A DNA stretch of 64,000 nucleotides from Escherichia coli (GTDB taxonomy: Bacteria; Pseudomonadota; Gammaproteobacteria; Enterobacterales; Enterobacteriaceae): NCBI RefSeq assembly GCF_009931435.1, contig NZ_CP043414.1, one strand, 5' to 3'. The notes below the pieces were generated by a model, which saw only the letters and a program-made list of their open reading frames with translations, made no database searches and was not told the origin of the DNA. Positions 49,716-50,106 of the stretch are shown here, in pieces. The translations under genes and the position numbers were made by a program. The number at the start of each line of letters is the position of its first letter. The first letter of the stretch is position 1.

Positions 49716-49977
49716 TAATATTTAAATTTATTTTGATTCAGGTATTGATATCTGATTATTATCTGTTATCTATATAAAAGAACAGAACGCAGGATCATCC
49801 TTTATTAATATTTTTTCCTTTTCAATCATGCGTTCTGTTCGACCAGTAATCTGTTAATTTTTATCTTTATGTAGTGAACGTTATTATTACTTTTTTATCA
49901 GATATGATAAATATCCCATGAGGAAGTAATAATAACAGTAGTAGTGATAACAAATGTTGTTTTTAAATCTCCCGGAA

Positions 49978-50003
49978 GGCAAAGAGAAATCTTTGCCTTT
50001 TTT
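49978..50003 (+). terminator. Rho-independent terminator (GAAA tetraloop hairpin plus T6)
   Basis: ggcaaaga-gaaa-tctttgcc followed by tttttt. Confidence 0.65.
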
Positions 50004-50106
50004 AATTCATCCGTCTGTCAGATAGAATTAAATATATCTTTCTATTTCTATTGCCAGATATGAGAGAAGCGTTATAACAGGAGTTATCATTAAAACAAAA
50101 AAGGAG

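Follow-up and report, generated by a model that had tools for sequence, protein, structure and literature searches.

The stretch of Escherichia coli DNA analysed here, hereafter the window, comprises 64,000 nucleotides of contig NZ_CP043414.1 (assembly GCF_009931435.1) and includes a genomic island in which a conjugation gene, traD, is followed by two pilin genes. The subject of this work is the 391-bp gap between traD and the first pilin gene, pilS (the spacer, 49716-50106), both flanking genes being read from the + strand. The upstream gene (49410-49715, + strand) encodes a Ti-type relaxosome accessory protein of 101 amino acids (PF06412 TraD, E 1e-10), and its E. coli homologues are annotated "conjugal transfer protein TraD". 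Downstream of the spacer lie a pilS-like gene for a type IVb major pilin (50113-50670, + strand; PilS PF08805, E 1.5e-28, and N_methyl) and a pilV-like gene for a minor pilin or tip adhesin (50723-52186, + strand; Shufflon_N, E 3.9e-14), the homologues of which are annotated PilV. The pilin was found to start at ATG 50113, the equivalent of which is used by its RefSeq homologues; the ATG at 50107, chosen as the start by the open reading frame (ORF) finder, is the result of an A-to-G change seen only in the window, all 34 of the other homologues having ATA. The spacer holds two stem-loops, a terminator and a promoter-like module, and on balance we lean towards the view that it yields a folded + strand RNA ending at the terminator, which would shield a separate pilS-pilV promoter, and that the inverted repeat in it is a stem of this RNA and not a switch.

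An initial annotation of this DNA had pointed to a 12-bp inverted repeat and a GAAA-tetraloop terminator upstream of the pilin gene. The repeat is exact, with one arm, GAACAGAACGCA, at 49780-49791 and its reverse complement, TGCGTTCTGTTC, at 49829-49840; the short spacing between them, given previously as 36 bp, is 37 bp, and the arms reach 16 nt when one mismatch is allowed (49780-95 / 49825-40). The repeat is more than a product of chance: exact inverted repeats of at least 12 nt with a spacer of at most 60 nt occur at only four places in the window, and two of these are inside the 391-bp spacer. The other two (44092-44134 and 58968-59010, with spacers of 14 and 21 nt) are probably terminators, the one at 44092 being also the second-best match of the RNA model R1. 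An 8-bp direct repeat, ATCTGTTA, flanks the first hairpin, not at the termini of the inverted repeat, and is probably due to chance. The terminator was likewise recovered as a hairpin at 49976-49999, its stem formed by AAGGCAAAGA (49976-85) and TCTTTGCCTT (49990-99) around a GAAA loop (49986-89), with a TTTTTT run (49998-50003) on the + strand, i.e., the strand of traD and pilS. The stem has 10 perfect base pairs, four of them G-C, and 12 when G-U pairs are counted, and the whole element spans 49974-50003; its fold (dG -15.6 kcal/mol, z = -4.8) is weaker on the - strand, where there is also no tail. In stem and tail it has the features of an intrinsic (Rho-independent) terminator, and it ends 110 nt before the true pilin start. 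A simple consensus terminator scanner overlooked it, apparently because the G-T extension of the stem uses up too much of the T-tail.

Between the repeat and the terminator lies a second and stronger hairpin (stem-loop 2, 49880-49936, + strand), absent from the initial annotation, with 19 + 5 bp, several G-U pairs and a folding energy of -23.3 kcal/mol (z = -8.7). Read as RNA from the + strand, the folded part of the spacer would begin with stem-loop 1 (49780-49840), the arms of which enclose a 37-nt A/U-rich loop (dG -19.4, z = -5.3, no shuffled sequence folding as well), and continue through a conserved linker (49841-49879) to stem-loop 2, then to a mostly single-stranded segment, AGTAGTAGTGATAACAAATGTTGTTTTTAAATCTCCCGG (49937-49973), directly 5' of the terminator. 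When the + strand from 49770 to 50006 was folded as a whole, the three hairpins were recovered at -67.9 kcal/mol (z = -7.8), compared with -56.7 kcal/mol (z = -5.0) for the - strand, and for stem-loop 2 alone the - strand value was -18.4. Both stem-loop 2 and the base of the terminator have G-U pairs; on the opposite strand, or if the DNA formed a cruciform, these would be mismatches of A with C. The several such pairs in stem-loop 2 make it specific to the + strand.

The block made up of traD, the spacer, pilS and pilV is present at about 94% identity in 525 of 5,426 complete E. coli genomes, always on the chromosome, and its carriers include CFT073, 536, Nissle 1917 and ATCC 25922. The spacer occurs in about one copy per genome, which rules out a dispersed repeat or a miniature inverted-repeat transposable element (MITE). 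Among 13 copies the nucleotide diversity (pi) of the spacer was 0.045, whereas that of third codon positions was 0.159 in traD and 0.169 in pilS, so that the spacer is about 3.6 times less variable than the third codon positions of its flanking genes. The linker had a value of 0.034, and the lowest values within the spacer were found in the segment 49937-49973 (0.018), in the ribosome-binding region (0.022) and in the terminator (0.025); the segment 49937-49973 is a possible seed or protein-binding region. Only one ATG-started ORF is present on the + strand (49954-50025, 23 amino acids), and its ATG is lost in at least five homologues and its frame shifted in two, which argues that the spacer is non-coding; a small protein encoded there was rejected as a candidate, since ORFs of at least 20 amino acids are not conserved among the homologues. 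Judged by its variation, the spacer is a selected, non-coding module. Rfam searches, run on the spacer and the island as well as on the whole window and two related loci, gave no family match inside the spacer; elsewhere, in the chromosomal part of the window, a naRNA4 / CssrE match above the gathering score (71.1 bits) was observed at 21294-21370 on the - strand. In the available text of the literature on ROD21, EARL and the serU island, no description of the traD-pilS spacer or of hairpins, a terminator or a small RNA (sRNA) at this place is given.

To follow the base pairing through evolution, 39 metagenome loci were added, giving 36 distinct sequences, 35 of which were long enough for alignment, and 25 distinct sequences (alignment A5) were used in a pairing test of stem-loop 2 and the terminator. 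In stem-loop 2 about ten kinds of substitution preserve pairing and three disrupt it, examples of the former being a T-A, T-G, C-G series at 49882:49934 and a change from A-U to U-G at 49889:49927. Over these 25 sequences 99.2% of the cells of stem-loop 2 were paired, with nine pairs varying on one side only and two on both sides; with the terminator included the figure was 99.3%, with 14 extra pair types, and 9 of 500 shuffles did as well. These statistics point to pairing as RNA in a suggestive rather than conclusive manner. The core stem of the terminator is identical in all 25 homologues, and the loop variants found, GUAA and GCGA, are both GNRA loops. In stem-loop 1 the arms are conserved and the loop accepts insertions and deletions, but the twelfth pair (49791:49829) is broken in seven homologues, leaving a conserved stem of 11 bp, and the support from pairing is weak.

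A candidate promoter for an independent spacer RNA, albeit a weak one, precedes stem-loop 1 on the + strand (49745-49772; -35 TTGATA at 49745-50, a 16-nt spacer and -10 TATCTA at 49767-72). Both hexamers are invariant in the 35 distinct homologues, with three variable positions between them, and the predicted start at about 49779-80, 7 nt after TATCTA, coincides with the base of the stem-loop. An alternative, TTGATT-18-TATTAT, was discarded as it is not conserved among the homologues. The geometry of the candidate matches that of a promoter in diverged relatives of the island, which were found in E. coli, Pluralibacter and Yersinia and have TraD proteins about 50% identical to that of the window. 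No sequence homology between the traD-pilS spacers of the window type and those of the other subtypes was detected by nhmmer. The latter nevertheless follow a common plan. A clear promoter, TTGACA-17-TATTTT, with invariant hexamers and variation in the spacer between them, is abutted at about +1 by a long-loop hairpin, after which come a small second hairpin and a strong terminator, which differs in sequence from that of the window, occupies the equivalent place and shows compensatory changes within a subtype. Two of these loci (L004 and L005) have a separate terminator that ends traD before the promoter, so that their unit, of about 115 nt, is independent of traD. In the 5' arm of the first hairpin of these subtypes (hairpin A), U and C are exchanged between subtypes at four positions opposite an invariant G, a pattern that keeps the pairing only if the molecule is RNA.

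Among the other subtypes the hairpin-terminator unit was found only in loci of pilS-bearing types (pilS itself being visible in six; L020 and L033 end before the gene) and in none of the loci where traD precedes cargo or pilV alone. The unit therefore travels with pilS and not with traD. A covariance model built on the RNA of another subtype had its best match in the window island at 49883-50005 on the + strand (19.1 bits, E 0.016). For the two RNA types only a shared architecture is claimed here and not homology, the match of the models being marginal and one-way. The top match of the window-type model was a near-perfect hairpin of about 150 nt between pilV and a type III restriction gene (L004 7098-7248), which also gave spurious microRNA-precursor matches in Rfam.

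Few blocks align across all pilS-bearing subtypes, and these are a 13-nt motif, ATCCGTCTGTCAG in the window (50009-50021, + strand; consensus ATCCGyyyrTCrG), and a TTGC -35 box, both downstream of the terminators and at a similar distance upstream of the pilin ATG. Together with a -10 box and a ribosome-binding site they make up a pilS-proximal module common to all pilS-bearing subtypes. The motif has one match in the window against 0.08 expected, and it recurs at the corresponding position in L003-type loci and in the majority of window-type loci, a few of the latter having variants that escape the exact pattern. It is followed by a candidate pilS promoter (50051-50078, + strand; -35 TTGCCA at 50051-56, 16 nt, -10 TATAAC at 50073-78), the hexamers of which are invariant in the 35 distinct homologues, whereas the 16-nt spacer between them has six to seven variable sites; the aligned position in other subtypes reads TTGCAT-16-TATTTC and TTGTTT-16-TATCTA. 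The Shine-Dalgarno sequence AAGGAG (50099-50104, + strand), 8 nt before ATG 50113, is preserved in all of the 35 distinct homologues but one (L047), which is divergent from that point on. A natural experiment is offered by Pluralibacter gergoviae (L016, 4089-5690), in which two pilS genes stand in tandem and the second is preceded by a duplicated remnant of the traD 3' end: here the hairpins and the terminator are missing, and the whole pilS-proximal module, from the motif through the -35 and -10 boxes to the ribosome-binding site, has been kept, which means that it is separable from the RNA unit. The second pilin of this locus is closer to the window pilin than the first is. From these alignments TTGCCA-16-TATAAC is likely to be the pilS promoter, and the motif is a candidate regulator-binding site, or operator, for it.

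The sequence of events that we favour is then as follows. Transcription would enter the spacer from traD, from TTGATA-16-TATCTA (starting at about 49780), or from both, and the RNA would present, in this order, stem-loop 1 (11-12 bp with the 37-nt loop), stem-loop 2 (24 bp), the conserved single-stranded stretch and the GNRA-capped terminator, at which transcription would stop at 50003. The product would be an sRNA-like transcript of about 225 nt, a structured 3' end of the traD mRNA, or both. The pilS-pilV genes would be transcribed from their own module, which would consist of ATCCGTCTGTCAG, TTGCCA, TATAAC, the ribosome-binding site and ATG 50113. The terminator would thus serve as a 3' end and an insulator rather than as an attenuator of the pilin genes, and the inverted repeat as an RNA stem rather than as a recombination site or a pilin operator. 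This account draws on structures, conservation, a strand bias, the absence of inversion (see below) and a linkage to pilS that are all directly observed, and a new island-encoded RNA element of an ordinary kind is a plausible description of the spacer. The proposal of the initial annotation that the spacer is regulatory stands to the extent that it is structured and functional and has a genuine terminator near the pilin gene, as the 525 genomes and the low diversity indicate, whereas the specific mechanisms offered for it fared less well, as discussed below.

Several results weigh against this reading. Both promoters, both ends of the RNA and any function of it are predictions, and the two -10 boxes, TATCTA and TATAAC, are both without the usual final T. 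With Rfam covariance models nothing real was obtained for the spacer in scans of 48000-51000 (E up to 10), of the island (E up to 1) or of the window (at gathering scores). The pairing test was not significant with 13 sequences, the homologues are 94-97% alike, which makes for thin covariation, and in stem-loop 1 four types of substitution preserve pairing through G-U and three break it. The reciprocal search with the window-type model placed the syntenic unit of the other subtype only at rank 13 (15.1 bits, E 0.47). As to a target, the interaction of the spacer RNA with the pilS leader, calculated with RNAduplex and dinucleotide shuffles, had z = -1.6 in the window type and about 0 in the other subtypes, and a scan over the 108 translation-start regions of the window gave nothing convincing. 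Antisense control of pilS had been considered on account of a complementarity noticed by eye between AGTGATAAC and GTTATCATT (CUCCAUA versus UAUGGAG), and was set aside as it was not significant in any subtype.

Among the other explanations, the first is that of a leader with an attenuator. Here pilS and pilV would depend on transcription that starts at the promoter before the hairpins or comes in from traD, with the terminator as a conditional stop and the folded RNA as the sensor; to overcome the stop, an RNA, a ligand or a factor encoded by host, island or helper plasmid would be needed. The initial annotation had a similar idea in proposing regulated read-through into the pilin genes. In favour of such a leader, the hairpin-terminator unit is found only beside pilS and always directly upstream of it, the conservation of its loops and linkers is very strong, which would suit a recognition element, and the upstream promoter of other subtypes is near-consensus while the promoter-like site after the terminator is weak. 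Against it, without its 3' arm, the 5' arm of the terminator pairs only weakly with 49864-72 (5-7 bp, probability about 0.5), so that no convincing antiterminator was found, and the terminator stem is strong and followed by a U-tract. Furthermore, a promoter-like module lies downstream of the terminator, the module is conserved across subtypes by itself and persists at the second pilS of L016 without hairpins and terminator, and subtypes differ in how far the terminator is from pilS, whereas the motif lies at a similar distance from it. Regulated read-through finds no support in these results, and we regard an attenuating leader, including one that is read through with the help of a factor, as rather unlikely. 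If the 12-bp repeat acted as DNA instead, it would be a protein-binding site, e.g., an operator or a roadblock for the adjacent upstream spacer promoter, at the predicted +1 of which it begins; its arms are highly conserved while the loop takes insertions and deletions, and the four pairing-neutral types of change stand against three that break the pairing, with no double compensatory change. Half-sites 49 bp apart from centre to centre are, on the other hand, not what operators normally have, the frequent substitutions (C to T at 49788 and 49840) hit one arm only and are just those that stay G-U paired in the + strand RNA, and other subtypes have at the equivalent place an unrelated long-loop hairpin with pyrimidine swaps that make sense for RNA only. 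A role as DNA is on these grounds improbable. As to the operator-controlled pilin promoter that had been suggested initially, the repeat is about 270 bp upstream of the likely pilS promoter with the terminator between them, and the motif at 50009-50021 is a better candidate for that function.

The initial annotation had also envisaged an invertible promoter. In such a DNA switch a recombinase would flip the segment between the repeats and turn a pilin promoter on and off, and the one point in its favour is that an exact inverted repeat of 12 bp lies close to pilin genes with plasmid relatives that use a shufflon. The flipped alternative was looked for directly: the inverted 37-bp query gave only 80-90% identity in all 525 genomes, so that none of them is flipped, and the 35 distinct sequences, metagenomes included, have a single orientation. 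To our knowledge the 37-bp segment is far shorter than any known invertible element. The terminator, moreover, lies between the repeat and pilS. In the ORFs called around pilV no rci-like gene was seen, and a shufflon-site pattern had no match near pilV; among the ORFs of the island that were scanned, the P4-like integrase, at a distance of 5.5 kb, was the sole tyrosine recombinase identified. The invertible promoter is thus refuted as proposed, and a switch of this kind is hardly conceivable. Clustered hairpins also occur at origins of transfer (oriT) and single-strand initiation (ssi) sites, and the spacer adjoins traD and the mobQ region, so that the hairpins could be DNA structures for the MobQ relaxase or for the priming of the complementary strand. 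In Ti-type systems the oriT is located between the relaxase gene and the traCD operon. The non-coding DNA that is conserved across genera adjoins mobQ (48765-48919 and 49065-49306) and is not that of 49716-50106. Similarity to the traD-pilS spacer is confined to its own subtype, islands that have mobQ and traD but lack pilS are also without the unit, and the G-U-dependent stems and the U-tract point to RNA; a transfer or initiation signal at this place is therefore very improbable. The folded RNA that ends at an insulating terminator remains the preferred reading of the spacer. Whether its relatives amount to more is a matter on which we can only be tentative: it is possible, if doubtful, that small structured RNAs of ROD21/EARL-type islands form a family not described before, the sequences of which evolve fast while position and architecture stay fixed, always with a link to pilS. 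Such an RNA could control the pilin genes in trans or as a leader with a terminator that is overridden by a factor from a helper conjugative element.

The island that contains the spacer has the layout integrase - Lamassu cargo - pilV - pilS - spacer - traD - mobQ - further cargo. The mobQ relaxase gene (47283-48764, - strand; PF03389, NF041496) lies on the far side of traD, and between pilV and the integrase lies the cargo, a Lamassu anti-phage pair (52247-55079, - strand; LmuB E 1.8e-224, LmuA E 3.3e-137), a slot that holds other genes in other copies, e.g., a type III restriction-modification system in L003-L006. The P4-like integrase gene (55625-56854, - strand) adjoins the tmRNA gene (57019-57381), the insertion site of the island, and a RepL-like gene (39754-40311) is part of the context. 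The island was found to have the gene set by which EARL/ROD21 are defined (PMC6035254), with a P4-like integrase, a MobA/MobL relaxase, TraD, a type IV pilin and a pilus-related protein, and by this content it is a ROD21/EARL-type integrative mobilizable island; in the accessible parts of the papers on it, ROD21/EARL is described as a family of excisable, mobilizable islands with such genes (PMC6035254, PMC3976249). EARL islands are reported, in the portion of text available (PMC6035254), to be inserted at Asn-tRNA genes, and direct repeats and a gene for a recombination directionality factor are further marks of the family; the insertion site differs here, as the integrase abuts the tmRNA gene. 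The copy in Nissle 1917 lies beside tcpC and next to zinT, and the E. coli copies inspected adjoin zinT, a site which in the CFT073 literature, so far as it is accessible, is that of the serU island. The module therefore moves between integration sites, being found at tmRNA here, at Asn-tRNA in EARL and at zinT/serU in other copies.

The non-coding DNA between mobQ and traD (48765-49409) contains the blocks 48765-48919 and 49065-49306, which are conserved at 65-87% identity in about 25 loci of many Enterobacterales genera, and it is probably the oriT and relaxosome region; its counterpart in CFT073 is the "P1" fragment of 645 bp that was investigated there, according to the available text of that report (PMC8147327). 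One block is 97% identical in L021, and an inverted repeat lies at 48878-48904. Between mobQ and traD of two loci of the diverged subtypes, a match to the ColE1-type RNAI (RF00106) was observed (L004 2249-2351 and L003 2406-2508, both on the - strand), the score in L004 being 48.8 bits where 47 is the gathering threshold, and with no such match in the window; a replication origin like that of ColE1 may therefore be part of these integrated islands. On plasmids, the pilins closest to that of the island have 45-47% identity and come from plasmids of about 30-45 kb from Klebsiella, Salmonella and Citrobacter, and a distant DNA search of plasmids revealed no related spacer. Such pilins are encoded by plasmid pTy031_01 (L082, NZ_KX833210) and about 60 similar plasmids, which are not IncI; the former carries a tandem pair of pilin genes together with a gene for H-NS and a type III restriction-modification system, with no annotated pilus assembly genes in the stretch read. 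A link to an IncI helper was rejected, as the island pilin is not close to the pilins of IncI plasmids.

This type of island is present in about one tenth of complete E. coli genomes, and the homologous pilin genes of CFT073, c2394-95, were shown experimentally to be fitness and adherence factors, the pilS-pilV genes contributing to the fitness and adherence of uropathogenic E. coli (UPEC), as stated in the accessible part of that study (PMC3855560). For these orphan pilin genes two elements are offered for experiments: an RNA unit that is conserved, and a promoter module, about 115 bp long, in which a 13-nt motif is common to the subtypes. If the RNA is real, it would be an island-encoded regulator that was missed by Rfam and, as far as their available text extends, by the papers on these islands; if it is not, what is left is the ordinary terminator of a gene followed by the promoter of the next one. 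Should a factor from a helper conjugative element override a leader terminator, pilin production would be tied to the chance of transfer.

The known systems with which the spacer can be compared share its parts to different degrees. As in intrinsic terminators, the hairpin at 49974-50003 is a stable stem followed by a U-tract. sRNAs derived from 3' untranslated regions (3'-UTRs) share the terminator of an mRNA, as is the case for DapZ and CpxQ. The RNA predicted here is likewise structured and downstream of a coding gene, with a candidate promoter just after that gene, but differs in being long (about 225 nt), unusually A/U-rich, without an Rfam family and predicted from sequence. The multi-hairpin RNAI of ColE1 (RF00106) is also an RNA of a mobilizable element, and the window-type model weakly matches the RNAI-like loci of the other subtypes; the Rfam RNAI model, in contrast, has no match to the spacer (E up to 10), and those loci lie elsewhere and on the opposite strand. 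With the invertible fimS element and the R64 shufflon (Rci; PMC12282955) the locus has in common an inverted repeat near pilin genes and a PilV with Shufflon_N, and it is unlike them in the 37-bp length of the segment, in that neither a shufflon site nor an rci-like gene turned up near pilV, and in the lack of a flipped allele in 525 genomes. The Arp sRNA of Acinetobacter baumannii, which according to the available part of the preprint represses pilin translation (bioRxiv 10.1101/2025.07.19.665661), has a similar association of a small RNA with a type IV pilin gene, whereas the pairing of the window RNA with the pilS leader is no better than that of shuffled sequences. The closest counterparts are the ROD21/EARL islands and the serU (tcpC) island of CFT073 and Nissle 1917, which, in the portions of the reports that are accessible, have a conserved gene set and variable cargo in common with the island of the window (PMC6035254, PMC3976249, PMC8147327). 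The segment 49300-50720 of the window is about 94% identical in the serU-island copy, and the window copy is distinguished by its position at the tmRNA gene, rather than at Asn-tRNA or serU, and by the Lamassu system that it carries.

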